IMG/VR virus record: IMGVR_UViG_2545824709_000014
Direction: 5' to 3' (one strand)
DNA from: a virus
Taxonomy: Duplodnaviria > Heunggongvirae > Uroviricota > Caudoviricetes
Length of the DNA: 41,579 bases
Positions 8,620 to 41,579 of the stretch are shown here, piece after piece (position 1 is the stretch's first letter; the number at the start of each line of letters is the position of its first letter). Under the pieces are notes generated by a model. The model had not been told where the DNA came from. It worked only from the letters and a program-made list of their open reading frames with translations, and searched no databases. The position numbers were made by a program, and so were the translations under genes.

Positions 8620-9033
8620 TTATCTGCTTGCAGGGAAAACAGGCCAAATAATATCAGGTGCGGTGCTGGTATCTGTTGCCGTCACAGCCTCGATATAATC
8701 CAGCACAACGTTAAGTCGGGTAGTTTCTTCTTGCGTCAGTTTGCGCCCGGCCTGCAGCTTTAACTGAATCACGCTGATATTGACCATTGCTGCGTCTAAC
8801 AGCGACTGTTTTTTCTGTTCAGCGTCAGCTACCAGTTCATCATGAGAACGTTCCGGAGTGGGTGGCGCAGTAAATCCCCCGTCTGAATACACCCAGCCGA
8901 TTCCGGGCTGCTCACTGATATCAGAAATATTAATGAGCTGCTGATTATCCGGCACTGTGAATTCAGCCTCGCCATCCCAGACAATGACATTCACAACCAT
9001 CCCATTTTCAATAACTGCATATGACGCATTCAT
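8620..9033 (-). CDS. G: Tail fiber assembly protein G
   Basis: Downstream of H; start placed at the internal ATG that overlaps the H stop (TAATG); ORF track alternative start is 9057. Confidence 0.65.
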   Translation of the reverse strand: MNASYAVIENGMVVNVIVWDGEAEFTVPDNQQLINISDISEQPGIGWVYSDGGFTAPPTPERSHDELVADAEQKKQSLLDAAMVNISVIQLKLQAGRKLTQEETTRLNVVLDYIEAVTATDTSTAPDIIWPVFPASR

Positions 9034-10952
9034 TATGCAAGCTCCTCGATAATACAAATTCCAGCAGCACCTTTCCCGCCCGTCATATTAGTTCCGCTAT
9101 AACCGGCATCGTATGCACCACCGCCACCTGAACCATATGCCTTACCGCTAACACCACCGCCAGCGCCTGCGCGTCCACCGCCTCCCCAGTACGATGCACC
9201 GCCTTTACCGCTGACGCCGATATTCCCGGACTGACCGTCGCCTCCATCTCCACCAGTGATGCGGGTATCGCCAATATTCGGTACGCCTCCGTAACCACCG
9301 TTTGTGTTTGTGATTCCTGGTTTTCCGGCACCTTCACCTCCTGGAGCAATTAACGATGAGAACGAGCTATCACCTCCCTTGTAACCCACTGACGCACCGA
9401 CACCGCCTCCACCGCCTGCACCGATAACGACAGGATAACTATTCTCTGTCAGGGTCATTGTTGAAATAATTGTTCCACCTGCTCCACCGCCTGCACCAAA
9501 AAACGTTTCGTTACTGGATGCTGCTTTGCATCCGCCCCCTCCGCCACCGCCGCCCGTTATTGTGACCCTGATCCGTTTTGTTCCTGGTGTCGGGGTGTAC
9601 GTACCTGATGACGTGAAAACCCGGGTATTCACCAAGCGTCCCACGTATCCGTTTGTAGCTCCCAAACCAAGATAATGAATAACCTCCTGTTTGCTTGTTT
9701 TAGCCAGAATATCCCGTCCAACATTAGTCAGGGTTGTCAGGCTGGCTGTATCATTCCCCGTAAAATACGGTAGTTTGTCTGCCGCAGTGGCAAGGCCTGC
9801 CAGTGCGGTCAGTGTGGCGTCGGCAGGTTGTTTTCCATTGGCAAGGTCATATACAGCCTTCACGGCTTTTGGTGTGGCAGCCTGCGTTTCTGACGTGCTG
9901 TTAGTGGCGCTGCTGAGTTGCACGGTGCCTTTTACCGTCAGTGAAGCTGCAGGCACATCCGTTATCTGGCTCCATGGGTGCGTGTGACTGACAGGTGCCT
10001 TACCTGCTGCAAGGTCATATGCCGCCTTCACTGCCTTTGGAGTGGCAGCCTGCGTTTCTGACGTGCTGTTAGTGGCGCTGCTGAGTTGCACGGTGCCTTT
10101 TACCGTCAGTGAAGCTGCAGGCACATCCGTTATCTGATTCCACGGGTGTGTGTGACTGACAGGAGCCTTACCTGCTGCAAGGTCATATGCCGCCTTCACT
10201 GCCTTTGGAGTGGCAGCCTGCGTTTCTGATGTGCTGTTAGTGGCGCTGCTGAGTTGCACAGTGCCTTTTACCGTCAGCGAGGCTGCAGGTACACCTGTTA
10301 TCTGATTCCACGGGTGTGTGTGACTGGCGGATGCTTTACCTGCTGCAAGATCATATGCAGCCTTTACAGCCTTCGGTGTTGCGGCCAGTATTTCGGATTC
10401 ACTGTTGGTCGCACTGCTTAACTGAGTAAAACCTTTTGCGGTCAGCGAGGCGTCCGGGTGACGTCGTGACTGTTCGTGCTCTGATATTTTGTCATCCACA
10501 TACTTGCGGGTTGCCAGCACTACGGCAGGGTCAATTTTCAGGGTGATATTGTCCATACTGCTGGTAATCAGCACCATGCGCACGGTCTGGGTGCGCCCGC
10601 TGCCTTCAGCCAGTTGCGGCTTATAGCTTTCCGGGCAGTTGCCCACGGCAATTAGTGCCCCGGATTCATCAAACAGGCCCACTTCACGTATCCACCAACC
10701 GCCCTCGTTTTCAGGGATCACCTGTTCAGCAATAATCTGGCTGCTGTTTTGCGGGTCGATATAGAGCATATTCAGCGCAGCCCGGCGTTTCTCATTTACC
10801 AGTGCCGTCTGCTTTGCGTCCGGCGTTGGCAATACTCCGCCGCCATCGCCCACCGCCATATGGGTAATTTTTAGCGGCACACCGAGCGCGGCGGCGCTGG
10901 CAAGTTTCGCCGCGCCAATATCCGTCAGCAGGGTATAAAATTTTGTGCTCAT
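9033..10952 (-). CDS. H: Tail fiber protein H with internal 56-aa tandem repeats and a glycine-rich C-terminal module
   Basis: 639 aa; conserved N-terminus MSTKFYTLLTDIGAAKLA...; repeats of AATPKAVKAAYDLAAGKAPVSHTHPWNQITDVPAASLTVKGTVQLSSATNSTSETQ; C-terminus with poly-Gly motifs. Confidence 0.85.
   Translation of the reverse strand: MSTKFYTLLTDIGAAKLASAAALGVPLKITHMAVGDGGGVLPTPDAKQTALVNEKRRAALNMLYIDPQNSSQIIAEQVIPENEGGWWIREVGLFDESGALIAVGNCPESYKPQLAEGSGRTQTVRMVLITSSMDNITLKIDPAVVLATRKYVDDKISEHEQSRRHPDASLTAKGFTQLSSATNSESEILAATPKAVKAAYDLAAGKASASHTHPWNQITGVPAASLTVKGTVQLSSATNSTSETQAATPKAVKAAYDLAAGKAPVSHTHPWNQITDVPAASLTVKGTVQLSSATNSTSETQAATPKAVKAAYDLAAGKAPVSHTHPWSQITDVPAASLTVKGTVQLSSATNSTSETQAATPKAVKAVYDLANGKQPADATLTALAGLATAADKLPYFTGNDTASLTTLTNVGRDILAKTSKQEVIHYLGLGATNGYVGRLVNTRVFTSSGTYTPTPGTKRIRVTITGGGGGGGGCKAASSNETFFGAGGGAGGTIISTMTLTENSYPVVIGAGGGGGVGASVGYKGGDSSFSSLIAPGGEGAGKPGITNTNGGYGGVPNIGDTRITGGDGGDGQSGNIGVSGKGGASYWGGGGRAGAGGGVSGKAYGSGGGGAYDAGYSGTNMTGGKGAAGICIIEELA
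9830..10440. repeat. Tandem 168-bp repeats (about 3.6 copies) inside H
   Basis: Near-identical units starting at about 9830, 9998, 10166 and 10334; the two middle copies are almost identical. Confidence 0.8.
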
Positions 10953-22248: not shown

Positions 22249-24456
22249 TTAAGTACGTAACATAATTTGCTGTTGAACTTGGATAGGCTGTAAGGTTTGA
22301 TATTTCTGCCTAATTAGGTTATATAAATCCGGCATTTCTTCAGCAGATAAAGTCACGACAAGAACATATGGTAGTTCTTCTAACTCGTCAACATCAATAG
22401 GCATACCACAGTCTCTACCATAGTAGATAATATCAAAGCATGGGTTTGTCAGCTCATTCGGTTTAAATTTGTGTTCACTTCTTAACGTAGTCTCCCATTT
22501 ATGTGCATCAACACGTTGCTCATTTTCATCTGCATAAACATTTTTTAGATTAAAAAGAGGAAACGTTAACCCGGAACTATCTGAAACACCTTTTCTCATG
22601 GTTACTTCTAGACCGCTTCTTGTATAATTCAAAGGATGTTCCGCATCTACAGGACTGGAAAAGCAGAATGTCGCTCTTAAATTTACACATCCACGCATAG
22701 GTACATCTGGAAACGGAATAGGTGCTCGCATGTGTTGTGATGGTTTTAAAGTACCTTGATATATAACTTTAACTTCATCATCATCACAAAATATTACTTC
22801 ACTAAGATCATGAGGAAATCGTCCCCAACCAACTTCAGCACGATTGATATTATTGCTCTCCGCATGATGTATAAGCAGAGCTTTAGCCGTAAGTGGTGTA
22901 ATGTTGTAATTTAGAGAAGCACTTAACGCGATTGCTTGCCTCAGGACTAATGGAGCTGAAAAGCTAGTCCCCGCAGTGCGGGCAAGACCATTAACCATAG
23001 GGCTGTATACCTGGAATGGCTCATCAGAATGTCCTCCAAATGCAACTCCATCAGGCTTCACAAAGCCAGGGCTTCGTCCAGGACCAATACAACTGTAAGA
23101 ACATCTTTCCCAACTATCAGATAAAGAGGTTGCTGCACCTACTGACAGACCATTAACTAAATCAGCAGGTGGTTGAATTCGATTTAACTTGGCAGGCAGC
23201 TGACCATCATTTCCAACCGCGACAGTACAAAGTGTTTCTCCTGATGCAAGTATCTCCTCAAGAGTTGAGGTCCACACATGCACGTCATCGTCATCAACAG
23301 GTAATCTAGGTCCTAAGCTCAGATTGATATAATCATATTTTTTTTGTTCTAATACACTTTTAATACGGATCAGAACGTCAAAAAGATCGACATCTGAGTT
23401 ATTAACATTGGAATCCAGTACACGATAATGGTCAATATTACAATAAGGAACACTTAATTTTTCCGTTTCAGAGCCAAGAACACCAAATAACACAGTAGAG
23501 GTGACATCCTGTCCATGAGAAAGAAGTTTTGCATTAGTACTAGCATTACCGTTGAAAGTGTACTCTGTTACCCAAGGATTGAAATCATCGATCCCCAATC
23601 CACCATCGAATATGGCAACCTTTATATGTGGGTTTACCGCTCCTTCAGATGGTAAACTAAGGTTAGATGTTTGAATCACAGAACGTGATATAACAGGCTC
23701 ACTTAGCCTTAATTCAGGAAGTTCTCTCAAAGTCCTGAGAAATGAAAACTCTGCAACTTTTAAAGCTACATCTTTACTAGCCTTAATAGGCATAAAGGTT
23801 AGCCCCTTAACCTTTATACTTCTTGCCTTATCTATAACAGCACCATTTTGCGAAGCAAAAACTTCAAAACTATCGACAATAGAGGAACTTGTATCAGGAG
23901 TATGTAAGGCGACCTCAATACTCATAACTTCATTGCTATTAATCGTTTTTACTTTATCTGAAACTTCCAGTATTGAAATATTTTCTAAGGTGACAAAATC
24001 ATTTTGCTGCCCTTTCGTTAGGGTATCTTGATTTACAGAGTCTAAGAATGATTGAAAACTTTCTTTTTTGCCAGAAACATAAATACACGCTGTAGTGTAT
24101 TCCTCTTTTCGCCCTCTTTTTTTAATATCTTTTCTAGGTTTTACTTTTACAGCCTTACTGCCTATGCTTTCTAGGGAAAATCGCTCAAAAAGACTTACTG
24201 GAAAATAACTTTTTGCTAAGAATGCCGGATGCAAAACAAATTTTGCTACAGCCTTACCTTCAGGCATTGCTAACAATGGAAGGGTATTAATTTCCTCAAT
24301 CAACTCTTCCAGTTGAGCAGATATCACTGGTTTATTTTCTGAATAAGAGTAAGGTTTATTCTTTTCACCTCCACCTCTGTTAAGTTTAACAGGGTTAGTT
24401 AGTGTTTCACCATAGCCAAGAAGCATATTTTTATCATTCATTGTCTTCATCCTCAA
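22249..24456 (-). CDS. Subtilisin-like (S8) serine peptidase with long N-terminal extension; candidate IetS-like defence protease
   Basis: 735 aa; S8 triad motifs VAIFDGGLG (Asp), SHGQDVTS (His), GTSFSAPLV (Ser); AT-rich; coupled to the upstream ATPase gene. Confidence 0.7.
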   Translation of the reverse strand: MRMKTMNDKNMLLGYGETLTNPVKLNRGGGEKNKPYSYSENKPVISAQLEELIEEINTLPLLAMPEGKAVAKFVLHPAFLAKSYFPVSLFERFSLESIGSKAVKVKPRKDIKKRGRKEEYTTACIYVSGKKESFQSFLDSVNQDTLTKGQQNDFVTLENISILEVSDKVKTINSNEVMSIEVALHTPDTSSSIVDSFEVFASQNGAVIDKARSIKVKGLTFMPIKASKDVALKVAEFSFLRTLRELPELRLSEPVISRSVIQTSNLSLPSEGAVNPHIKVAIFDGGLGIDDFNPWVTEYTFNGNASTNAKLLSHGQDVTSTVLFGVLGSETEKLSVPYCNIDHYRVLDSNVNNSDVDLFDVLIRIKSVLEQKKYDYINLSLGPRLPVDDDDVHVWTSTLEEILASGETLCTVAVGNDGQLPAKLNRIQPPADLVNGLSVGAATSLSDSWERCSYSCIGPGRSPGFVKPDGVAFGGHSDEPFQVYSPMVNGLARTAGTSFSAPLVLRQAIALSASLNYNITPLTAKALLIHHAESNNINRAEVGWGRFPHDLSEVIFCDDDEVKVIYQGTLKPSQHMRAPIPFPDVPMRGCVNLRATFCFSSPVDAEHPLNYTRSGLEVTMRKGVSDSSGLTFPLFNLKNVYADENEQRVDAHKWETTLRSEHKFKPNELTNPCFDIIYYGRDCGMPIDVDELEELPYVLVVTLSAEEMPDLYNLIRQKYQTLQPIQVQQQIMLRT

Positions 24457-25516
24457 CCGTCAAAACCTTACGTACTTGTGACCTTGAAATCCCCAAATCT
24501 AAAGCGATTTTTCTTTGTGATACATTGTTGTTTGACATGTTTTTTATAACATCATCAAGTGACACGCCATCTAACAACTCATCAATTAAAGCTGAACTTA
24601 AAGGAATATCTTCTATAATGGCATTTCTTTTAGCTTGATTTATAGCTCTCTCAAGAACTGCATATGAAACTTTTTCGAGTTTTGTAGCAATATAGTACGA
24701 TAAGCTATCTCCAATATTTTTAGAACAGAGATATCTTCTCATTAGGTCTTGTGTTGGATATTCAAAATCAATAACTCGATCGAATCTTCTCCATGCAGCA
24801 GGATCAAGCAGCTCCGCATGGTTAGTTGCTGCTATAAGAACAGACGTATTTGGCCATTCATCAATTGCTTGCAATAATACTGTAACTAATCTTTTTAGTT
24901 CTCCAACATCTGTTGCATCATCCCTTTTTTTAGCAATCGCATCAAATTCGTCAAGAAGCAGTACACAAGGGAATGACGAAGCATAATTGAGGACTGCCTT
25001 AATATTATTACCCGTTTTCCCCAAGTAGCTACTCATTACACTTGCGAGATCTAATGTTAACAATGGCATATCGAGTTTAAAAGCGAGCCACTTTGCAGCC
25101 AAAGTCTTCCCCACACCGGGTGGTCCTCCCATAAGAAGAGATTTGGACGGATGCAACCCTTCTTTATAAAGGCGTTCTTTCATTTCCCACTCAGCCACAA
25201 ATCGATTCAGTTGAACATCAGTTTTTGTTGGCCAAACAGGTTCAACATCAATGACCACAGGATATGTTTCAACTAGCAGCTTTTGTCTTGTATCCGCATC
25301 AACAGGTGTTATTTTAGGAACAACTGGATTAGCCCTTTCGACTGCAATTGCGCCACCTGTATTAATAAGTAAATCTTCTAATTTACCCGCTAATTCAGGA
25401 GATTCTTTTTTTAGTTTTTTTGCCATAATCCGCAACCGCATGAGGAGACTTTCCCTCTTCCCGGTAAGAGCATCACTGACAACATCAATGAGCATTTCGT
25501 TTGTAACGTTTATCAT
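24434..25516 (-). CDS. AAA+ ATPase with C-terminal HTH-like tail; candidate IetA-like defence ATPase
   Basis: 360 aa; Walker A GGPPGVGKT, Walker B VLLLDEFD; C-terminal QRKIALDLGISRSQVRKVL; AAGGGTGG SD upstream. Confidence 0.7.
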   Translation of the reverse strand: MINVTNEMLIDVVSDALTGKRESLLMRLRIMAKKLKKESPELAGKLEDLLINTGGAIAVERANPVVPKITPVDADTRQKLLVETYPVVIDVEPVWPTKTDVQLNRFVAEWEMKERLYKEGLHPSKSLLMGGPPGVGKTLAAKWLAFKLDMPLLTLDLASVMSSYLGKTGNNIKAVLNYASSFPCVLLLDEFDAIAKKRDDATDVGELKRLVTVLLQAIDEWPNTSVLIAATNHAELLDPAAWRRFDRVIDFEYPTQDLMRRYLCSKNIGDSLSYYIATKLEKVSYAVLERAINQAKRNAIIEDIPLSSALIDELLDGVSLDDVIKNMSNNNVSQRKIALDLGISRSQVRKVLTVEDEDNE

Positions 25517-32359: not shown

Positions 32360-33373
32360 ATGACCATCAGAAAACAGCCGAACGGAAAATGGTTGTGTGA
32401 GTGCTATCCCAATGGACGCAATGGCAAGCGCGTGCGTAAGCAATTTGCTACGAAAGGCGAAGCCATTGCGTTTGAAAGCTTCACAATGGAAGAAGTGAAT
32501 AAAAAACCGTGGTTGGGTGAAAAGGATGATCGGCGACGCCTATCAGAATTAATTGAGCTTTGGTATTCCCTGTATGGTCAAACACTCGCAGACCCCAAGC
32601 GCCTCATGGCGAAACTTAGAATTATCTGTAATGGTCTAGGCGATCCCATCGCCTCAGAACTGACAGCTGGTGACTTTACAAAATACCGCGAAGCACGGTT
32701 AAAAGGTGAAATACGAAATGAAGATGGCACGCTTATGTCGCCCGTAAAGCCCCGCACGGTAAACCTTGAACAGCGCAATCTATCATCTGTGTTCGGTACA
32801 TTAAAAAAACTAGGACACTGGTCAGCACCAAACCCGCTGGCAGGACTTCCGACCTTCAAAATTGCCGAAGGTGAGCTGGCTTTTCTTTCCACGGACGAAA
32901 TCAAGCGCCTGTTGGCGGCATGTGCTGAATCTCAAAACCCTAGCTTACTAATGATTGCAAAAATATGCCTAGCTACTGGCGCACGGTGGAGTGAAGCCGA
33001 AAATCTGCAGGGCCACCAAATATCGAAATACCGAATTACTTATACAAAAACAAAAGGCAAGAAAAACAGAACAGTACCCATATCACAGGAGCTGTATGAC
33101 GAACTCCCAAAGAACAGAGGGAAGTTATTCTCACCATGTAGAAAAGCCTTTGAACGAGCAGTAAAACGGGCAGGTATAGATCTACCGGATGGCCAATGCA
33201 CCCACGTGCTGCGACATACGTTTGCTAGCCACTTTATGATGAATGGCGGGAACATACTTGTGCTAAGGGATATTTTGGGACATTCGGATATCAAGATGAC
33301 CATGGTTTACTCACATTTCTCACCAGATCATCTTGAAGATGCCGTTACTAAGAACCCATTAAACTTGATATAA
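32360..33373 (+). CDS. int: Tyrosine integrase (P2/186 family)
   Basis: 337 aa; C-terminal HVLRHTFASHFMMNGG...LGHSDIKMTMVYSHF with catalytic R, H-x-x-R and Y. Confidence 0.85.
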   Translation: MTIRKQPNGKWLCECYPNGRNGKRVRKQFATKGEAIAFESFTMEEVNKKPWLGEKDDRRRLSELIELWYSLYGQTLADPKRLMAKLRIICNGLGDPIASELTAGDFTKYREARLKGEIRNEDGTLMSPVKPRTVNLEQRNLSSVFGTLKKLGHWSAPNPLAGLPTFKIAEGELAFLSTDEIKRLLAACAESQNPSLLMIAKICLATGARWSEAENLQGHQISKYRITYTKTKGKKNRTVPISQELYDELPKNRGKLFSPCRKAFERAVKRAGIDLPDGQCTHVLRHTFASHFMMNGGNILVLRDILGHSDIKMTMVYSHFSPDHLEDAVTKNPLNLI

Positions 33374-33386
33374 AACAGCCAAAATT

Positions 33387-35144
33387 CTATTTCATCAAGT
33401 AATCCAATTCATCCTTCATAGGTATAACTTGCTCATAAAGTCTATGGTAGGATTTTCCAATTGCACCCCTAAATTGAATAAGTTTAGGGGAAAAGCTACC
33501 GATATTAATAATATGTTCTTGCGCTATACCAGGATATGGATCGATAAAAATAATCTCTGTCATACCTAACTGATAAGCTTTTTTAGCACAAAGTTCACAA
33601 GGGCTAGCTGTAGTATATAGTTTCCCTCCATTAATACCGACCCCACCATATTTGGCCAATTGCAAAAAAGCATTCTCCTCTGCGTGCAATGCACGGGTAT
33701 GCACTTGATTCCCTTTCTTTTCATCATCAAGGCTGTTGTGAATATCTTTAAAACAATATGGCAAATTAAGTCCTTTAAAAACAGTAGAACTTGAATCACT
33801 CGCCCTTATTTTTATTAAATTTTCTTTAACTTTACTCCTAAATTTTGTATTACTTCGTTCGTACAGGCTATATGTTCCCTCATCAAAATCATGCAATAAC
33901 CCATCAAATGACCTCATAGAACAAGGAACTTGACCTTTTGCTACATCGTTCCAACCAACTGACTTGATAGAGTTATCATTATCTGTCACAACCGCCCCTA
34001 CTTGCCTAGATATACATCCAGAATTTAGTTTTACAGTATATGCAACTTGCATAACCCTTTCCATGGCGGTAGGAGATATTAATCCAGGGTGTTGCATTAA
34101 TGATACATACCACGCAATTTGTGCTTTGAGAAAATTATTATTATCAAATTCTTTTTTAGGGTTAAAAAAATGTATATCTGAAATTTCAATGCATTTTTTT
34201 ACATTAGGATTAGTAAGATGATTATACTCGCCATCTCCTTTACCAGATTCTTCATCATTAATTTTTTTTATCTGTTCCTCTGAGAACTTATGTAATTTCT
34301 TTAAATATCTGGTTCGATGTTCATCTGGTGCATTTATAGAAACCAGATGGAATGCAGCATATCTATCTTTGAAGAATTTAGCTTCATACGGGTTACGTAT
34401 CGCATCAATGACTATATACGCTTTATTATTCTTTACTTTTCTAATTATTTTAATAACACGATTAATTGTTTCAGGTAAATGAAAAACAGCCTTTGGAATA
34501 AAGTCTTGATTTTCATAATCTACATCAACCTTCCCTATTCTTCTAATTGACTTTCCTGCTGACTGATATAGCTCAATATATAAACCTGGCTCTAGTTCAT
34601 TTAATTCCCTTTTAAAATCCCGTGTAAATTTTCGAGTAAGAGTTAATATCCTAATAAAGGTATCTTTCCCCCTGCCTTTAAAGTCAATCTCATCATCATG
34701 ATTAAGAAGATTTTTTATCACCTCAAGATATTTTATCTTCAACAAACTTTTAGCGAACACACCATTAACAACCAGTTTCTTGGCTGCCTTAAAGGAAATC
34801 GAATTTTCTTTTTTATCGGGGATTTTACTTGCAGAAAACTGAATGAATTTAGCTAAGGCCGATGGAGATAAAAGGAGCAAATATATTGAAATGAGATCAC
34901 TGACCTTTATCGAATAGAAGTTCTTCCAATGAGTCTCTGCAAAATTTTTTACTATTTCATAACGCCGCAAATCCAATCCTTTATAATACTCAGCCAAGAC
35001 GTTACTATCTGGAAAAGATATTTCTTTTTGTTCTAAAATATTTGCTGCAGTAGTACATCCTGAGCCAGTTCTCCCAGTTAAACCAATAAGAATAAATTGA
35101 CTATTTTCTAAAAAAAGCTCACTAATAAATTTGTGTTCTCTCAT
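33387..35144 (-). CDS. P-loop kinase-like domain fused to CMP/dCMP-type deaminase domain; candidate AvcD / defensive dCTP deaminase
   Basis: 585 aa; N-terminal P-loop GLTGRTGSGCTT; C-terminal zinc-deaminase signature HAEENA...SPCELC; AT-rich; lies between int and attR. Confidence 0.65.
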   Translation of the reverse strand: MREHKFISELFLENSQFILIGLTGRTGSGCTTAANILEQKEISFPDSNVLAEYYKGLDLRRYEIVKNFAETHWKNFYSIKVSDLISIYLLLLSPSALAKFIQFSASKIPDKKENSISFKAAKKLVVNGVFAKSLLKIKYLEVIKNLLNHDDEIDFKGRGKDTFIRILTLTRKFTRDFKRELNELEPGLYIELYQSAGKSIRRIGKVDVDYENQDFIPKAVFHLPETINRVIKIIRKVKNNKAYIVIDAIRNPYEAKFFKDRYAAFHLVSINAPDEHRTRYLKKLHKFSEEQIKKINDEESGKGDGEYNHLTNPNVKKCIEISDIHFFNPKKEFDNNNFLKAQIAWYVSLMQHPGLISPTAMERVMQVAYTVKLNSGCISRQVGAVVTDNDNSIKSVGWNDVAKGQVPCSMRSFDGLLHDFDEGTYSLYERSNTKFRSKVKENLIKIRASDSSSTVFKGLNLPYCFKDIHNSLDDEKKGNQVHTRALHAEENAFLQLAKYGGVGINGGKLYTTASPCELCAKKAYQLGMTEIIFIDPYPGIAQEHIINIGSFSPKLIQFRGAIGKSYHRLYEQVIPMKDELDYLMK

Positions 35145-35366: not shown

Positions 35367-35411
35367 ATGTAGGAATTTCGGACGCGGGTTCAACTCCCGC
35401 CAGCTCCACCA
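35367..35411. repeat. att core, right copy (duplicated 3' end of ssrA)
   Basis: 45 bp identical to 358-402; followed by its own hairpin and T-run, then a P4-type integrase. Confidence 0.85.
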
Positions 35412-35576
35412 CTTTTTAGTTGTTTGAAGTTCAATGAAGTCTACTAAGCCCACACAGCACAAGCTCTGCGGGCTTTTTTACGTCTATTGTCGTCCAGTGA
35501 GAATTGCTGAGAACTACGAGTTATGGCACCCTGAATGGGACCCATTAAGAAGGGTCCAAAAACCGAGGGTCCCAAA

Positions 35577-36806
35577 ATGGCAAAAATCGCTAAGAAGCTC
35601 ACTGACACTGAAATCAAAAGCACCAAGCCAGCCGATAAAGAAATCAACTTGTTTGACGGTGATGGTCTGATTCTACGAATCGCTCCTTTGGCGAAAGGAG
35701 GCAAGAAAAATTGGTATTTCAGGTATGCAGTACCAGTGAGCAAGAAAAGAACCAAAATGAGCCTTGGGACATATCCTCACCTTACCCTTGCAAGAGCCAG
35801 AGCCTTACGTGATGAATATCTCTCCTTTCTGGCAAATGGTGTTGATCCCCAAATCCATAACAACGATAAGGCGAAGGCATTAAAGAGTGCTACTGAGCAC
35901 ACTCTCCAAGCCGTAGCGCGGAAATGGTTAGATGAGAAGGTAAAGACATCAGGTATCTCACAAGACCATGCAGCAGACATCTGGCGCAGCTTAGAGAGAA
36001 ATGTCTTTCCCGGTCTGGGTAATGTCCCTATCAATGAGATCCGACCTAAGCTCTTAAAACAACACCTTGATCCTATTGAGCAACGAGGCGTATTGGAAAC
36101 TCTACGCCGTATCATTTCACGTCTGAATGAAATCTTCCGGTGGGCAGCTACTGAAGAACTTATTGAGTTCAACCCGGCTGACAACCTTGGTCAAAGATTC
36201 AGTAAACCAAAAAAGCAAAATATGCCTGCCCTTCCCCCAAGCGAATTGCCAAGGTTTATGGAATCTTTGACGAATGCGTCAATCCGGTTGGAAACACGTA
36301 TGCTAATTGAATGGCAATTGTTGACATGGGTTCGTCCGGGTGAAGCCGTTCGCGCAAGGTGGTCTGATATTGATACAACCAACAGCATTTGGAACATTCC
36401 TGCTGATTTCATGAAAATGAAAAAGCTTCACAAAGTTCCTTTGAGTAAAGAAGCTTTGCGCATCCTTGAATTAATGAAATCAATAAGTGGGCATAGAGAA
36501 TGGGTTTTCCCCAGCATAAAAGCGCCTCTTAATCATATGCATGAACAAACAGCCAACGCAGCTATCATCCGAATGGGGTTCGGAGGCGAGCTTGTAGCTC
36601 ACGGTATGCGTTCTATTGCACGAACAGCGGCAGAGGAGTCTGGTAAATTCAGAGCTGAAGTTCTTGAGGCAGCGCTTGCCCACTCGAAAAAAGATGAAAT
36701 TATCGCAGCATACAATCGTGCAGAATATCTGATAGAGCGACAGAGTTTGATGCAATGGTGGAGTGATTACGTTCAAGCTCAAAGATCAAATGCTCTGGTA
36801 GCCTAA
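35577..36806 (+). CDS. Tyrosine integrase, P4 family
   Basis: Start placed at MAKIAKKLTDTEIKSTKPADKE (GAGG 8 nt upstream), a typical P4-Int N-terminal arm-binding region; C-terminal HGMRSIARTAA...AYNRAEYLIERQSLMQWWSDY; ORF track start is 35535. Confidence 0.85.
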   Translation: MAKIAKKLTDTEIKSTKPADKEINLFDGDGLILRIAPLAKGGKKNWYFRYAVPVSKKRTKMSLGTYPHLTLARARALRDEYLSFLANGVDPQIHNNDKAKALKSATEHTLQAVARKWLDEKVKTSGISQDHAADIWRSLERNVFPGLGNVPINEIRPKLLKQHLDPIEQRGVLETLRRIISRLNEIFRWAATEELIEFNPADNLGQRFSKPKKQNMPALPPSELPRFMESLTNASIRLETRMLIEWQLLTWVRPGEAVRARWSDIDTTNSIWNIPADFMKMKKLHKVPLSKEALRILELMKSISGHREWVFPSIKAPLNHMHEQTANAAIIRMGFGGELVAHGMRSIARTAAEESGKFRAEVLEAALAHSKKDEIIAAYNRAEYLIERQSLMQWWSDYVQAQRSNALVA

Positions 36807-36844: not shown

Positions 36845-37261
36845 ATGGAAACCCTATTCAAAGTTTTTGAAAAATTTAGTTCCAGACCACTTTTTTTTAT
36901 TTTTTTCGGACTCTCACTTTGTGAATTTTTTCAGAAACAATCTGTTCTGATGAATCCATCAGCAGATAACATCGCGAAATTATTCGCAGCCATGATATTA
37001 GTTGTTTTTTTTACTTGGGGATTTGAATGGCTAATCTTCAAGTTCAATGTAAACCTTGAACCTCATGATCAAGGCGATATTGGACCAACAATTGGAACGG
37101 CTACTTTAGCTGTATACTTAGTTTATGCCTTTCACTTTCTCAGTGAAAATCCTGAAGCATTAAATTTAAAGTTATTAACTAACTCTGGCTTTATATACAG
37201 CACAACTCTATTATTATTCTCATTAGAATGCATGAAGCTTAGAAGACTTAAACAAAAATAA
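36845..37261 (+). CDS. Small hypothetical membrane protein (about four predicted TM helices)
   Basis: 138 aa; AT-rich; hydrophobic segments LFFIFFGLSL, AAMILVVFFTWGFEWLIF, IGTATLAVYLVYAF, IYSTTLLLFSL. Confidence 0.5.
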   Translation: METLFKVFEKFSSRPLFFIFFGLSLCEFFQKQSVLMNPSADNIAKLFAAMILVVFFTWGFEWLIFKFNVNLEPHDQGDIGPTIGTATLAVYLVYAFHFLSENPEALNLKLLTNSGFIYSTTLLLFSLECMKLRRLKQK

Positions 37262-37291
37262 ACAACATCATTGTGATGATAAATATAAAAT

Positions 37292-37320
37292 AGGCATGGC
37301 GAAAAAAAATCACCACGCCT
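37292..37320. terminator. Hairpin between the convergent 4-TM gene and the receiver-domain gene
   Basis: AGGCATGG ... CCACGCCT imperfect inverted repeat around an A-rich loop. Confidence 0.3.
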
Positions 37321-37332
37321 AAAATATAATAA

Positions 37333-39099
37333 TTATGGTAGCATCATTGATACATAATCCACACCAATCCTTGAGCTATACTGAGACGCTATAGCCTGAT
37401 ATCTTTCTGCATAACCAGTTCTCAGTTGAGATTTAAGTTTGAGTCGGACAGGAACATTTTGCACGTTGCCATCCATATTACTTAAAAACACGGCAGAAAT
37501 AATATTTTTTTCTTCGCCATCAACTGTTGTTCCATGATTCAACACCACCATATAATCAACAACAGGAAGCGTTTTATCCCCTTCGAAAATAGAGAGATAT
37601 TTTCTTTGATTTTTATGCATTACATATATATATTTCGAATGTTCAGCAAATGGCAATGCTTTACTCTGACTGGCGTTAAAAAGCTCCAGAACTTTAATGA
37701 GCCTGTGCGGACTTAATCTTACATGGTGAGGGTCGTTACCCTGAGTAGGAACCAAATCACATGCCGCAGATACACATAAATACCATTTGTTCGACTCTGT
37801 ATCAAAGAAAATAGTGCCAGTAGAAATATGACCATCTTCAAAATTCTTTGAAGACAAATTCATATTTAAAGCATGATACATTTCGTGATAAGTATCATTA
37901 TTTGATGGCAGATCCATTTTTGAAGAGCAATATTGGAGCAATGCAGCAACTCCGCTGTTAGCGTATTCATTTGAATAGCTATCAAAAACACTTTTGATAA
38001 ATTCATCCAGCGTATTATTATTTTTAAGTCTTTGATAAAGCTCTTCTGATAAATTACCAAATACAAAGTCAATATTTCTACATCTAATATCAGGCGAGTC
38101 TGATTTTAATATCTCATTTAACCACGCAGCTTGACCGTAATGATCGTTAGCCAAATGATTTACAAAAGATAAAACCTCAGCTTCGATTGCATTCTGAATT
38201 TCAGATTTTATTAACTGATAATAAGATGGTTTCCATTCAATGAGAGAATCATTGAGAGTTTGCCAAATCCTATCTCCATCGTTTTCATGATCATCTTGAA
38301 CCTTATGAAATAGGGAGACAAAGATATTACCACATTGAATCCATTTTACTCCGCTTTCATCACCCCGAATGACATTGCCAGATGTGTTGCTAGAAATAAT
38401 TGCATTTCTAGACACAGCATATTCTGCAATCATTTTTGCAATGAAGTTTTTATCCTTTTGATCCTCCAACACAGCATCATCATGTATTAATCTTTTAATT
38501 CTTCTACAAGGCTTACTGTCTTTAATATAGGCTATTGTTTCATCTCTTGTGAGAGCTTTATTACCATTATCATTTAAGTTCGGTAATACAACGTCTTCCC
38601 AATAACTTTGGACATCTTCATTATCGTAGTCAATGATCAAGCTGTTGATATCCAGAGCACCTTTGAGAGTCGATGATATCTGCATCCAAACCGTTTCTAA
38701 ATTCTCTCTAGTATATATTACAATCATATTTAAATGATCGGAGTCTTTCAAATCTTGTAATAGTTTAAGTGTTTTATCAGGTGCATTATTATCAAGATGA
38801 TAATCTACAATAATAAGATCTGATTTTCTAATCCGATCCACATCGAAATTAACAGAACCATTGTCAACATCACAAATCATATTTTTAGATTGAAAAAAGC
38901 TCTCAAGAGTAGCGGCTCGTTTAGATGAGTCAATTTTGTTGTAGTCTAAATCAACTTCGTTATTCAACGCCCTGATTGATTCAGAATACGTCAGAAAATC
39001 GTCATCAATCATGACAACGGAACGAATTGCATTTTCGCAGAAAGTTTTCTGGACAAGAGAATTATAATTTGCCACTGTCATATTAGAACTCCACTCCAT
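37333..39099 (-). CDS. Receiver (REC)-like N-terminal domain fused to a ~450-aa domain of unknown function
   Basis: 588 aa; VVMIDDD acidic pocket, LIIVDYHLD candidate phospho-acceptor Asp, MIVIYT; start overlaps the upstream kinase-like gene by 17 nt; AT-rich. Confidence 0.6.
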   Translation of the reverse strand: MEWSSNMTVANYNSLVQKTFCENAIRSVVMIDDDFLTYSESIRALNNEVDLDYNKIDSSKRAATLESFFQSKNMICDVDNGSVNFDVDRIRKSDLIIVDYHLDNNAPDKTLKLLQDLKDSDHLNMIVIYTRENLETVWMQISSTLKGALDINSLIIDYDNEDVQSYWEDVVLPNLNDNGNKALTRDETIAYIKDSKPCRRIKRLIHDDAVLEDQKDKNFIAKMIAEYAVSRNAIISSNTSGNVIRGDESGVKWIQCGNIFVSLFHKVQDDHENDGDRIWQTLNDSLIEWKPSYYQLIKSEIQNAIEAEVLSFVNHLANDHYGQAAWLNEILKSDSPDIRCRNIDFVFGNLSEELYQRLKNNNTLDEFIKSVFDSYSNEYANSGVAALLQYCSSKMDLPSNNDTYHEMYHALNMNLSSKNFEDGHISTGTIFFDTESNKWYLCVSAACDLVPTQGNDPHHVRLSPHRLIKVLELFNASQSKALPFAEHSKYIYVMHKNQRKYLSIFEGDKTLPVVDYMVVLNHGTTVDGEEKNIISAVFLSNMDGNVQNVPVRLKLKSQLRTGYAERYQAIASQYSSRIGVDYVSMMLP

Positions 39100-40801
39100 T
39101 GAACTGGATCACAAAATTAGCGCCATCTTTTATTAAATAGTTATCGCCTTCATCAGGTTCTGAATACCATATTTTATGATGTGCAACAGCAAGGTTTTCT
39201 CGACATAGATACAGACCTACCCCATGTCCATTTGCTCTTTTGCTATAAAATAGTTCAAATAGTCGCGGGATATCATCGGTATCAATTGCCGGACCAGAAT
39301 TTGCTATGATAACCAAAGAATTCACAAAACCAATCTTTATGAGCCTATTATTTGACAGACTGACCCAATACATTGCATTGTTGATAATATTAGTAAAAAC
39401 AGGATAGATCCTTGATGGTATATCTGTTATTGCGATTTGCTTAAACTCTTCACTAAATTCAATAGTTATTCGTTGCCGTTCGAAACGCTCCCCAAAGAAC
39501 TTCAGGACATAATCCATGATATTTTTTCCAGTTATTCTCTGCCTGGATTGATAACCTGATATTTTCAAAGGTGATAAGAAACGTATTTGTTGAGTAAGCG
39601 ATCTGTGAGCATTTAACGCCAATGAAAAACCAGGGTGTTCTTTTACAGAAGTAGGAAGAGAGTTTAGTCCTCTGGTTACCATAGAATCCATTTCTTCAAG
39701 TTCATGAGATATTATCTCAACACTAATACCTAACTGTGCAAGCGCGTTTAAACTTTTAGCTTTTTCTTCAAAATATGAGCGTTCTTCTTCAGATAATGAG
39801 AATGCTGAATCTAAGTTTATACCTTCAAATAATCTATCGAGACCTTTTATTATTGATTGATATTTGAAAGTTAGGGTATCAACTGACTCAACATATAAAC
39901 TATCGAGCAAATTAAACACATTTTCAATTTGTGAATCATTATCTATTGAATCAACAACTGATATAGTTTTAGCATAATAATCACTTCGATCAACCTTTAT
40001 TTCATCGGCCCATTTTTTTAAAAGAGAATGTATCTTCTCCTCTATCGTGTTATTAAACTTAGTTAGTTTAGAATTAATAATACCTTGATTTTTTTCAAGG
40101 TGATTTTTCGCTGACAATGAAGGCTCAAGTTTATTTAATTCAGAATCAAGTTTATTAATTGCTAACTTCATTTGTAGAATATACGCAGAGAACTCATTAA
40201 ATTTATCTCTGTAGTCTCTATATTTCTCTTCATACATTCCAAGTTTTGGAGGTTTGATAGGCGTTTTAATTTCACTGCGCAACGCATCTAAGTTTGTAAG
40301 ATCACTGTCTATAATTTTAAGATAGTTTAAATCTAACGAACCATCAGTTTTATCAAGCTTAGTTTTCAGCCTTTTAACAGCCTCCAAGGAAGCATCAAGA
40401 ACTGGTGTCTGATTCTTCAAAGCTTCTGAAAAACTTTTTTGTGTTGATTTTCGAGCTTGTTGTTGAGCAGATTTTCTTAACTCTTTTTCACGCTTAACTT
40501 GTTCTAAAAGCTCTTTACGGTCATCAGAACGTGAACCAAAAAATCTATCAGCAAGTTCAGTTAACAAATTAGATATAATAGTTTTCAGTTCTCTTGCAGC
40601 CTGGTTTCTTATGAATCCCTCTCTCCCCGACTTATCTTTCAGCTCTTTATTACTGGATTGAGTAATTCCAATATAACCAAAAATCCTTCTATTAGACCAA
40701 TAATATCGCCCTGCATTCCATGAACGTCTTTCTTCTATCTGGAAGAAATCATTATCTACTCGACCATAAGGTAATACTCTCAAGCTATCCCTAAAAATCA
40801 T
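39083..40801 (-). CDS. Histidine-kinase-like protein (coiled-coil N-terminus, H-box, C-terminal GHKL ATPase); possibly 5'-truncated
   Basis: 572 aa; H-box-like ISHELEEMD; N-box FTNIINNAMYW; G-box-like ANSGPAID and GHGVGLYL; reading frame stays open upstream of the first ATG into the IS3 end. Confidence 0.6.
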   Translation of the reverse strand: MIFRDSLRVLPYGRVDNDFFQIEERRSWNAGRYYWSNRRIFGYIGITQSSNKELKDKSGREGFIRNQAARELKTIISNLLTELADRFFGSRSDDRKELLEQVKREKELRKSAQQQARKSTQKSFSEALKNQTPVLDASLEAVKRLKTKLDKTDGSLDLNYLKIIDSDLTNLDALRSEIKTPIKPPKLGMYEEKYRDYRDKFNEFSAYILQMKLAINKLDSELNKLEPSLSAKNHLEKNQGIINSKLTKFNNTIEEKIHSLLKKWADEIKVDRSDYYAKTISVVDSIDNDSQIENVFNLLDSLYVESVDTLTFKYQSIIKGLDRLFEGINLDSAFSLSEEERSYFEEKAKSLNALAQLGISVEIISHELEEMDSMVTRGLNSLPTSVKEHPGFSLALNAHRSLTQQIRFLSPLKISGYQSRQRITGKNIMDYVLKFFGERFERQRITIEFSEEFKQIAITDIPSRIYPVFTNIINNAMYWVSLSNNRLIKIGFVNSLVIIANSGPAIDTDDIPRLFELFYSKRANGHGVGLYLCRENLAVAHHKIWYSEPDEGDNYLIKDGANFVIQFNGVEF

Positions 40802-40922
40802 TAGTCCTGCATACTTTTTGGCCTTAAGATCAAAGTGGGAATGTTCACGTTCAGTATGTGATGTATTTTGTGAAAGGAATTCAAACGTTCCTATCTGAAG
40901 CTCAAATGGGCCGACCCCTGCG

Positions 40923-41579
40923 TGATCCTACCCACGTAATATGGACACAGGCCTAAGCGAGGTTCTTGTTTTCAAATTGTTCCGGACTGAGGCCGCCACA
41001 CCAACTGTGCCGCCGCCACCGATTGTAATCACATTCGATATAATTAAACACCGTTGCCCGCATTATTTCCCGGCTGATAAAGTGTTCTCCATGGATACAT
41101 TCCACTTTCAGCGAATGAAAGAAGCTTTCCACGCAGGCATTATCGTAGCAGCAACCTTTTGCGCTCATACTTCCACGCAGATTATGCCGCTTCAGTTGCG
41201 CCTGATAATCTGCTGAACAGTACTGGCCTCCACGGTCCGTGTGAACGATAACGTTCCGGGGCCTCGTACGCCGCCACAGCGCCATCTGCAGGGCATCGCA
41301 GGCCAGTTGCGCCGTCATGCGTGGCGACATTGACCAGCCAATAACGGCACGTGACCACAGGTCAATGACCACTGCCAGATACAGCCAGCCTTCATCTGTA
41401 CGTAAGTACGTGATGTCTCCTGCCCACTTCTGGTTCGGGCCACTGGCGTAAAAATCCTGCTCCAACAGATTTTCTGATACAGGCAGGCCGTGTGCGCGGT
41501 AGCTGACCGGGCTGAACTTCCGGGAGGCCTTTGCCCTCAGTCCCTGACGGCGCAGGCTTGCCGCCACGGTTTTTACGTT
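40923..41579 (-). mobile_element. IS3, right end (partial, continues beyond the window)
   Basis: Terminal inverted repeat TGATCCTACCCACGTAATATGGACAC...; encodes the IS3 orfB transposase. Confidence 0.8.
40953..41579 (-). CDS. insF: IS3 transposase OrfB (InsF), partial
   Basis: ...[22 protein letters not shown]...[11 protein letters not shown]...[22 protein letters not shown] matches IS3 InsF as I recall it; DDE motif region present. Confidence 0.8.

Follow-up and report, generated by a model that had tools for sequence, protein, structure and literature searches.

The DNA analysed here is a 41,579-nt stretch, referred to below as the window, from the virus record IMGVR_UViG_2545824709_000014. 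Its setting is the ssrA region of Escherichia coli, with the transfer-messenger RNA (tmRNA) gene at 40-402. A small separate island lies 3' of a second copy of the ssrA end: it holds an integrase gene, an open reading frame (ORF) of 138 amino acids (aa) and, on the minus strand, a gene for a receiver-domain protein and a gene for a kinase, followed by an IS3 insertion sequence that continues past the window end. An earlier note, made from the sequence alone, had proposed that the kinase and receiver genes form an undescribed, two-gene defence module resembling a two-component system, carried in a P4-like satellite hotspot. We found that the pair belongs to a known family, that the locus has already been flagged as a defence candidate, and that the copy in the window is degenerate. 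The features of the island are the following.

35367-35411, plus strand: second 45-nt copy of the ssrA 3' end, an exact direct repeat of 358-402
35535-36806, plus strand: P4-type tyrosine integrase of the island (Pfam Arm-DNA-bind_3, Phage_int_M and Phage_integrase); the same gene lies beside ssrA in E. coli genomes and related islands
36845-37261, plus strand: hydrophobic ORF of 138 aa that separates the integrase gene from the receiver gene and is convergent with the operon
37291-37321, minus strand: intrinsic-terminator-like hairpin (12-bp stem and T run), directly 3' of the receiver gene
37333-39081, minus strand: receiver-domain protein gene, 582 aa, RefSeq WP_000214990.1, Response_reg_2 (PF19192); annotated identically in E. 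coli genomes
37336-38226, minus strand: family-specific C-terminal output region, residues 286-582
38227-39081, minus strand: receiver (REC) domain, residues 1-285
39083-40801, minus strand: kinase ORF, truncated to 572 aa (WP_000577254.1 in RefSeq) and corresponding to residues 417-988 of an intact 988-aa paraMORC-histidine kinase
39143-39418, minus strand: HATPase_c catalytic ATP-binding (CA) domain, PF02518, with N box FTNIINNAMYW, G1-like ANSGPAID and G2 GHGVGLYL
39560-39736, minus strand: HEF_HK (DHp, phospho-acceptor) domain, PF19191, ORF residues 356-414
40802-40922, minus strand: kinase-derived sequence that lies in frame upstream of the first ATG and has no start codon; it covers about residues 377-416 of the intact protein
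40923-41579, minus strand: IS3 element, partial because it runs past the window end (rve, rve_2 and rve_3); annotated as "IS3-like element IS3 family transposase" at the same position in E. coli genomes

Both ORFs lie at the coordinates given in the earlier note and contain all of the motifs that it quoted, with ISHELEEMD at kinase residues 364-372 and VVMIDDD, LIIVDYHLD and MIVIYT in the receiver protein. Its reading of the two folds was borne out by Pfam profile searches, which placed HEF_HK (1.2e-5, 26.1 bits, cutoff 24.1) and HATPase_c (1.8e-11, 44.9 bits, cutoff 26.4) in the kinase ORF and Response_reg_2 (4.1e-31, 108.9 bits, cutoff 27) in the receiver protein. The pair is AT-rich, as had been stated, at a GC content of 0.342 (34%) compared with 0.484 for the window, and it is translationally coupled: the kinase stop codon TAA (39085-39083) is followed by a single t and then by the ATG at 39081, with a GGAG upstream. 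Because this ATG sits one base after the kinase stop and has the GGAG in front of it, it is likely the start of the receiver gene in preference to 39099; it yields the 582-aa product seen in RefSeq and in homologs rather than one of 588 aa.

From its sequence, the kinase ORF is a fragment whose N-terminal paraMORC GHKL sensor ATPase was removed by the IS3. The case for truncation is that a kinase frame of 614 codons stays open upstream of the first ATG as far as the IS3 terminal repeat, and that this frame matches residues 376-988 of a 988-aa protein encoded on a related island at 607 of 613 positions (99%). A TAG stop in the kinase frame (40928-40930) lies within the IS3, and the transposase gene orfB (40953-41567) is co-oriented with the kinase remnant. 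The intact 988-aa kinase has a HATPase_c_3 (paraMORC) ATPase at residues 28-137, and full-length alleles with 99% identity are found in Salmonella, Klebsiella and Serratia. Since the gene is a fragment, the coiled-coil N-terminus that had been attributed to the kinase is instead the linker region of the longer protein. No methylase was found between 35.4 kb and the window end, and beyond the kinase remnant a reference genome contains only the IS3, an amylase pseudogene and glaH, again with no methylase. We also observed that phrog_8137 in PHROGs is a family of 572 positions, the same extent as the truncated E. coli kinase, and that phrog_7659 (532 positions) covers the receiver protein. The remnant has evidently ended up in sets of "prophage" proteins, presumably through its adjacency to prophages at ssrA.

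The residues expected of a phosphotransfer pair are conserved. The H-box histidine is His366 of the ORF and His782 of the intact protein (codon 39704-39706), and this residue and the glutamate that follows it (Glu367 of the ORF, Glu783) were invariant in 15 of 15 kinases aligned. The N and G2 box residues N887, N890, N891, G941, G943 and G945 were invariant in the same alignment, and the N-terminal GHKL motifs (E32, N36, D39, D61, G63 and G65) are conserved in the intact kinases. By sequence, the DHp and CA region matched the ThkA sensor kinase, and the CA domain matched ThkA/FixL kinases in the Protein Data Bank (PDB). In the receiver protein, the catalytic set consists of the acidic pair D26/D27, the phospho-acceptor D93 (codon 38803-38805), T124 and K260; all five were invariant in 66 of 66 receiver homologs. 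The REC domain carries a large helical insertion, at about residues 141-237, ahead of strand 5.

Downstream of the REC domain, residues 286-582 were modelled confidently (predicted local distance difference test score, pLDDT, 87.5) as a helical bundle at about 286-410 and a beta-rich subdomain at about 411-567. Residues N406, G422, C441, L553 and R554 were invariant in the 66-sequence alignment; in a subset of 24 sequences, R571 and G573 were invariant as well, and positions 442 and 575 were occupied by D or E. These residues did not match any motif to which we could put a name. A Foldseek search of the output region against the PDB returned no matches, with no PNP-like fold among them, an hhalign comparison with a MazF/Kid alignment gave 0.14%, and sequence searches of the PDB with phmmer and hmmsearch gave nothing informative. 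Pfam, NCBIfam and PHROGs identified no helix-turn-helix (HTH), other DNA-binding or nuclease family in the receiver protein. The statement that the C-terminal part could not be assigned to a family thus held up under both sequence and structure searches.

A profile of the output domain searched against 1.84 billion cluster representatives gave 660 matches, and the best 150 of the 660 all had the layout of a receiver followed by this C-terminal region. The matches of atypical length that we checked were Response_reg_2 alone or fragments, with no other domain. The domain is real and, by this search, exclusive to Response_reg_2 proteins.

We examined ten related loci that range from Enterobacterales to Acidobacteria. 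They are distributed as follows.

L002: related enterobacterial ssrA island
L003: Pantoea
L004 and L005: ssrA island that bears the 99%-identical allele, a relaxase gene and a NikA-like gene; L004 8098-14717 takes in a 207-aa gene together with the genes for methylase, kinase and receiver
L007-L009: E. coli integrative and conjugative element (ICE), with a 72%-identical paralog
L010: acidobacterial conjugative element
L011 and L012: metagenomic or draft contigs
L013: Acinetobacter junii, Tn7-like element
L014: Klebsiella pneumoniae CP141543.1, with a frameshifted kinase

All ten loci encode a C5 DNA methyltransferase together with a kinase of about 970-993 aa and a receiver protein of about 580-644 aa, and the junctions between the genes often overlap. 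The kinase is intact (about 990 aa, with the N-terminal paraMORC ATPase) in nine of them and frameshifted in the tenth, L014. At the distant loci L010-L013, receiver identity was 26-45%. None of the ten has a nuclease gene in the cassette. With the methyltransferase present throughout and a kinase of about 990 aa in nine loci, the description of the pair as a two-gene module was not supported. At L013 (8777-10104) the C5 methylase gene follows the receiver gene, is encoded on the other strand and is paired with a gene for a 71-aa HTH_3 protein; this protein resembles the controller (C) proteins of restriction-modification (R-M) systems, and L013 is the only one of the ten loci with an HTH gene in the cassette.

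The contexts of the cassette are mobile elements: a relaxase/NikA island at ssrA, an ICE with TraI, TraG and TraU, a VirB/Trb element and a Tn7-like element. The earlier note had suggested that homologs be surveyed for recurrence in P4 and P2 hotspots and defence islands. Recurrence on islands, ICEs and Tn7-like elements was observed, and the placement of the two genes as cargo beside a P4-type integrase was confirmed by the integrase domains, the 45-nt ssrA repeat and the position of the genes directly after the integrase. A P4 satellite context, however, was unsupported. The intact island (L004/L005) has, besides its relaxase and NikA-like genes, additional recombinases; in the roughly 15 kb examined we detected no P4 or phage genes, the P4 core genes were not found, and the unknown genes of the island had no PHROG matches.

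In our judgement, the locus in the window is probably what is left of the right-hand part of a mobile cassette with three genes, for methyltransferase, kinase and receiver. The complete cassette would consist of a C5 cytosine DNA methyltransferase of about 400 aa, a fusion protein of about 990 aa in which an N-terminal paraMORC-type GHKL ATPase is joined through a long helical linker to HEF_HK and HATPase_c, and a Response_reg_2 receiver of about 580 aa with the family-specific C-terminal domain. It would have been the integrase-proximal cargo of a mobilisable island that integrates at ssrA. An IS3 event in the E. coli lineage would then account for the loss of the methyltransferase, of the first 375 or so kinase codons (the whole sensor ATPase) and of the rest of the island, leaving the kinase core, read from an internal Met, and an intact receiver protein.

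The truncated arrangement was present at 99% identity or higher in 560 of 5426 complete E. coli genomes (about 11%), and the carriers examined share an identical IS3 junction. A few of the copies have further insertion sequences or deletions (H29, H58 and H64). An intact copy of the window allele, recognisable by the methylase or the N-terminal part of the kinase, was found in none of the 5426 genomes; the only intact relative in E. coli was the 72%-identical paralog on the ICE. As every copy shares the IS3 junction, the close similarity of the copies is consistent with one ancestral event that was passed on clonally.

Weak NCBIfam matches between the ATP-binding domain and AtoS, DcuS, PhoR and others, all of them below threshold, could be taken to mean that the pair is an ordinary E. 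coli housekeeping two-component system. This idea is hardly credible: those matches are all far under their cutoffs, the pair occurs in only about 11% of E. coli genomes and has 34% GC within an integrase-bounded ssrA island, and mobile elements of different genera carry homologs with 99% identity.

Decay of the kinase was also seen outside E. coli. At L014 (6734-9719) a frameshift near residue 304 splits the kinase gene into an ATPase ORF of 314 aa and an ORF of 572 aa whose first codon is the internal Met that also opens the E. coli ORF, while the C5 methylase and receiver genes are intact. Kinase ORFs of 572 aa and of 715-752 aa are numerous in other genera, and frameshifts of the kind seen at L014 probably explain those of 572 aa. 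The abundance of these fragments suggests that the sensor half of the kinase has been inactivated repeatedly.

The family itself has been described, so the label "undescribed" does not apply. Bellieny-Rabelo, Pretorius and Moleleki (2021) defined the HEF_HK/Response_reg_2 pair, Pfam PF19191 and PF19192, as "TCS-like" (two-component system-like) at 644 loci with 91.6% linkage, and they found genes for C5 methylases, Vsr and HNH_2 to be enriched nearby (PMC8011034). They reported HATPase_c in 93.7% of the kinases and an N-terminal HATPase_c_3 in 83%, proposed an origin from paraMORCs and took the pair to regulate R-M systems; members from E. coli were already in their data set, and the receiver C-terminal domain was not analysed there (Genome Biol Evol, PMC8011034). 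An association of paraMORC ATPases with R-M systems had been made in 2008 (Iyer, Abhiman and Aravind, PMC2292703). A paper on Vibrio cholerae WASA that mentions "paraMORC" concerns a GHKL-Shedu fusion, which is a different family.

Our loci agree with this description in the two Pfam families, their adjacency, the soluble kinase and the association with C5 methylases and mobile DNA, and the intact allele has the predominant kinase architecture of HATPase_c_3, HEF_HK and HATPase_c. The window copy has the HEF_HK histidine with its acidic residue, HATPase_c and an adjacent Response_reg_2 with the catalytic set; it lacks HATPase_c_3 and neighbouring genes for a C5 methyltransferase or an R-M system, which were lost via the IS3. 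The missing HATPase_c_3 is therefore a secondary loss and not the mark of a different family.

A role in defence had been predicted before. Table S5 of the DefensePredictor study lists WP_000214990.1 and WP_000577254.1, the exact proteins of the window, each as a "Predicted novel defense gene" with log-odds of 12.0 and 6.6 (Science 2026, PMC13092281), so the defence hypothesis of the earlier note is shared by that study at the level of prediction. Its Table S6 records that a paralogous intact E. coli pair, expressed from pBAD as transcription units (TUs) 2CM2 and 2CMP, was scored defensive = FALSE (PMC13092281). TU 2CM2 lies on the ECOR contig NZ_RRWH01000008.1, where bases 1-1443 are upstream of it. 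The cloned pair is the 989-aa kinase WP_000236931.1 with the 607-aa receiver WP_000886597.1; as those tables record them, the constructs span the kinase and receiver genes only, without the methylase, and the window locus itself is not among the clones. Because the construct lacks the methylase, this result is not decisive. It agrees in part with an outcome that the earlier note itself had named as counting against its proposal, namely that cloned intact homologs give no phage protection, and the authors of the study themselves note that its negatives may stem from wrong system boundaries (PMC13092281). A HATPase/REC system that appears in a figure of the same study contains PNP (Detocs-like) and is not the HEF_HK/Response_reg_2 pair. 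The accessions of the window proteins were found in none of the main texts of the literature searched.

Among systems validated with phage, the closest relative of the HEF_HK/Response_reg_2 cassette is Ambrosia (AbrR-AbrA-AbrB-AbrC-AbrD), a five-gene system found mainly in Pseudomonadales. It comprises an XRE regulator, an N6-adenine methylase, a HATPase kinase (AbrB, 747 aa), a short receiver (AbrC, 209 aa) and an HNH nuclease (bioRxiv 10.1101/2025.09.30.679545). Both assemblies combine a methyltransferase, a kinase with HATPase_c_3 and HATPase_c, and a receiver protein, and the first 399 aa of AbrB align co-linearly with the N-terminus of the intact kinase at 32-33% identity in two segments (6e-11 and 4e-6), only the second of which survives in the window. 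In contrast, AbrC belongs to the classical Response_reg proteins and could not be matched to the 582-aa Response_reg_2 protein (best BLASTP E value 6.8), AbrB is shorter than the 988-aa intact kinase, and there is no N6 methylase or HNH gene in the cassette of the window or of the ten loci, whose methylase is of the C5 type.

Resemblance to restriction systems was seen at the N-terminus of the intact kinase. Roughly 125 residues there, found in the intact allele only, matched positions 8-128 of the 659-position NCBIfam model NF050001 for the BbrUII/HgiDII restriction enzyme (1.5e-13), at 50.2 bits, far below the cutoff of 550. Like the paraMORC/GHKL restriction systems, the cassette links an N-terminal GHKL ATPase of the MORC/paraMORC radiation to a cytosine methylase. 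It differs from the BbrUII/HgiDII systems in that the ATPase is followed by a histidine-kinase module and not by a nuclease, and in the addition of a receiver protein.

PADLOC v2 contains Detocs models. Searches of PADLOC-DB v2 found no system model for either the truncated proteins (E ≤ 0.1) or the intact ones (E ≤ 0.01), for which the sole match was that of the methylase to MTase_II. The pair shares with Detocs a logic of phosphotransfer, a cytoplasmic kinase, a receiver fused to a non-DNA-binding output and a defence-island context, and the earlier note had wondered whether it might be a minimal relative. Detocs (DtcA/DtcB/DtcC) has three genes, for a kinase, a receiver that serves as buffer and a receiver-linked PNP-type ATP nucleosidase, the effector through which ATP is depleted, and it lacks a methylase (bioRxiv 10.1101/2023.01.24.525353). 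We found no third receiver ORF in 36.8-41 kb or in the intact relatives, no PNP or other nucleosidase domain in Pfam and no PADLOC match, in agreement with the earlier note's remark that the Detocs features are missing. The proteins fall in separate Pfam families (HEF_HK as well as Response_reg_2) and have a methylase partner. Membership in Detocs is refuted by these results, and kinship of the minimal kind is very improbable.

Starting from the observed domain identities, truncation point, three-gene unit, mobile contexts and conserved phosphotransfer residues, we tentatively suggest how intact copies may work, at a likelihood that we place somewhat short of even. The methylase would mark host DNA. 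The N-terminal GHKL module, which is related to the ATPase module of HgiDII/BbrUII and to AbrB, would clamp or scan DNA and, on meeting foreign or unmodified DNA, would drive autophosphorylation of His782. Phosphate would pass from His782 to Asp93 of the receiver and turn on the C-terminal domain as an effector, a role proposed for it because the cassette encodes no other candidate. A more specific possibility, which we hold to be somewhat unlikely, is that the intact family is an R-M-like immune system in which the paraMORC-histidine kinase senses foreign DNA and a phosphorelay to the effector domain of the receiver replaces the nuclease, with the E. coli remnant preserving the kinase core and the effector and perhaps keeping some residual or constitutive activity. 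The C-terminal domain would then possibly be a MazF/CcdB-like barrel.

Several points weigh against the proposed mechanism. Its steps are inferred. The paralogous pair without its methylase was not defensive, and the tables that record this report no toxicity, which is awkward for a simple model in which restriction kills unmethylated DNA. Control of transcription through the two-component part is the view preferred by the authors of the Ambrosia study, in whose system methylation gave phage no protection (bioRxiv 10.1101/2025.09.30.679545). The 2CM2 result and the Ambrosia data together caution against a simple classical R-M reading.

These considerations bring forward a second explanation, that the intact pair is a conventional transcriptional two-component system which switches the adjacent methylase, or unlinked restriction genes, through DNA binding by the receiver C-terminus. 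Regulation was proposed by Bellieny-Rabelo and colleagues in 2021 as well as by the Ambrosia authors; the Ambrosia genes are induced by infection, and the D60A substitution in AbrC abolishes defence (bioRxiv 10.1101/2025.09.30.679545). The controller-like HTH_3 gene beside the methylase at L013 indicates that regulation matters in such cassettes, and the helical bundle of the receiver C-terminus could hide a DNA-binding motif. However, the three databases searched found no HTH or other DNA-binding family in the receiver protein, there is no nuclease gene to control at any of the ten loci, and BLASTP found no similarity between the 582-aa protein and AbrC, which is a classical Response_reg. The sensor, moreover, is a DNA-manipulating ATPase of the GHKL/MutL type, akin to the ATPase modules of restriction enzymes, which would be unusual for an expression switch. 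We consider this explanation unlikely, and regard the phosphorelay to a C-terminal effector as the better account of intact copies.

For the window copy, the most likely explanation is that the remnant is inert, clonally inherited cargo and not a working defence system, since the sensor and the methylase were lost in one IS3-associated event. This view has to accommodate two findings that pull the other way. Both ORFs are intact, nearly invariant in hundreds of genomes and scored as defensive by DefensePredictor, which leaves room for a residual function, and the orientation of the IS3 would allow read-through transcription of the remnant. Residual activity is possible but unsupported.

Taken further, the same findings could mean that the two genes are a working, self-sufficient module in which the kinase core phosphorylates the receiver upon infection and the C-terminal domain aborts the infection. 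The ORFs are coupled and followed by a terminator, their catalytic His, Asp and ATP-binding motifs are intact, the log-odds given above are high for both proteins (12.0 and 6.6), the pair is retained at 99% identity or more in 560 genomes, and other defence genes (dCTP deaminase and IetAS) lie nearby in the window. Against these stand the truncation of the kinase by the IS3, which took the whole sensor ATPase, and the absence of a methylase that all ten related loci possess. A promoter scan found 17 sites where 18.8 were expected from shuffled sequence, so there was no excess, and the identity across genomes fits clonal inheritance, with an identical IS3 junction in every copy. Intact paralogous pairs were, in the DefensePredictor tables, not defensive when cloned. 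A self-sufficient module is thus quite improbable, and we retain the reading of the remnant as inert cargo.

The remainder of the window is occupied mainly by a prophage. The 45-nt ssrA repeat at 35367-35411 is the attachment repeat for this upstream prophage and for the integrase island. The prophage (403-35366) looks complete, is inserted in the ssrA 3' end between the exact 45-nt direct repeats and lies between ssrA and the older integrase island. Its genes include those for terminase, portal, major head, tape measure and tail fibre, for a replication protein of the gpA nicking type and for a 337-aa integrase (32360-33373); the gene set looks P2-like, a label that we infer from these genes. 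The tail-fibre ORF (9033-10952, minus strand) contains three overlapping 242-nt copies at 9841-10418, with a spacing of 168 nt and 84-100% identity, which form an in-frame tandem repeat of 56 codons.

Further cargo was found in the prophage. An AT-rich two-gene insert (GC 0.36-0.39) at 22249-25516 on the minus strand, between the portal and replication genes, matched the PADLOC models for IetS (1.8e-48) and IetA (6.7e-84) and is, by these matches, a predicted Gao_Iet (IetAS) defence system. A 585-aa protein encoded at 33387-35144 (minus strand), between the prophage integrase and the attachment repeat, combines an N-terminal kinase-like P-loop with a C-terminal dCMP/cytidine deaminase domain and matched the PADLOC dCTPase model (2.1e-146). 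At the left end of the prophage, directly 3' of ssrA, two plus-strand ORFs of GC 0.41-0.42 (576-1289, 237 aa, and 1404-1832, 142 aa) had no PADLOC or PHROGs match and are unexplained cargo. In the island, the 138-aa hydrophobic ORF had no Pfam, PADLOC or NCBIfam match and a single match to phrog_6556, a family of unknown function. It is kept in the intact islands L004/L005 (L004 14788-15204) and probably stands outside the kinase/receiver operon.

The window locus is in itself of little consequence: it has decayed, and Pfam models and a 2021 paper for its family, as well as a defence prediction for its very proteins, exist already. What it teaches concerns the boundary of the system: the conserved unit is three genes, the methylase included, and constructs of kinase and receiver that gave negative results may for this reason have been incomplete. 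Since only the IS3-truncated form is present in 560 of the 5426 genomes, the E. coli carriers are the wrong source for cloning. An intact allele with all three genes, taken from another genus, would be the better starting point for studying the function of the intact cassette and of its C-terminal domain.

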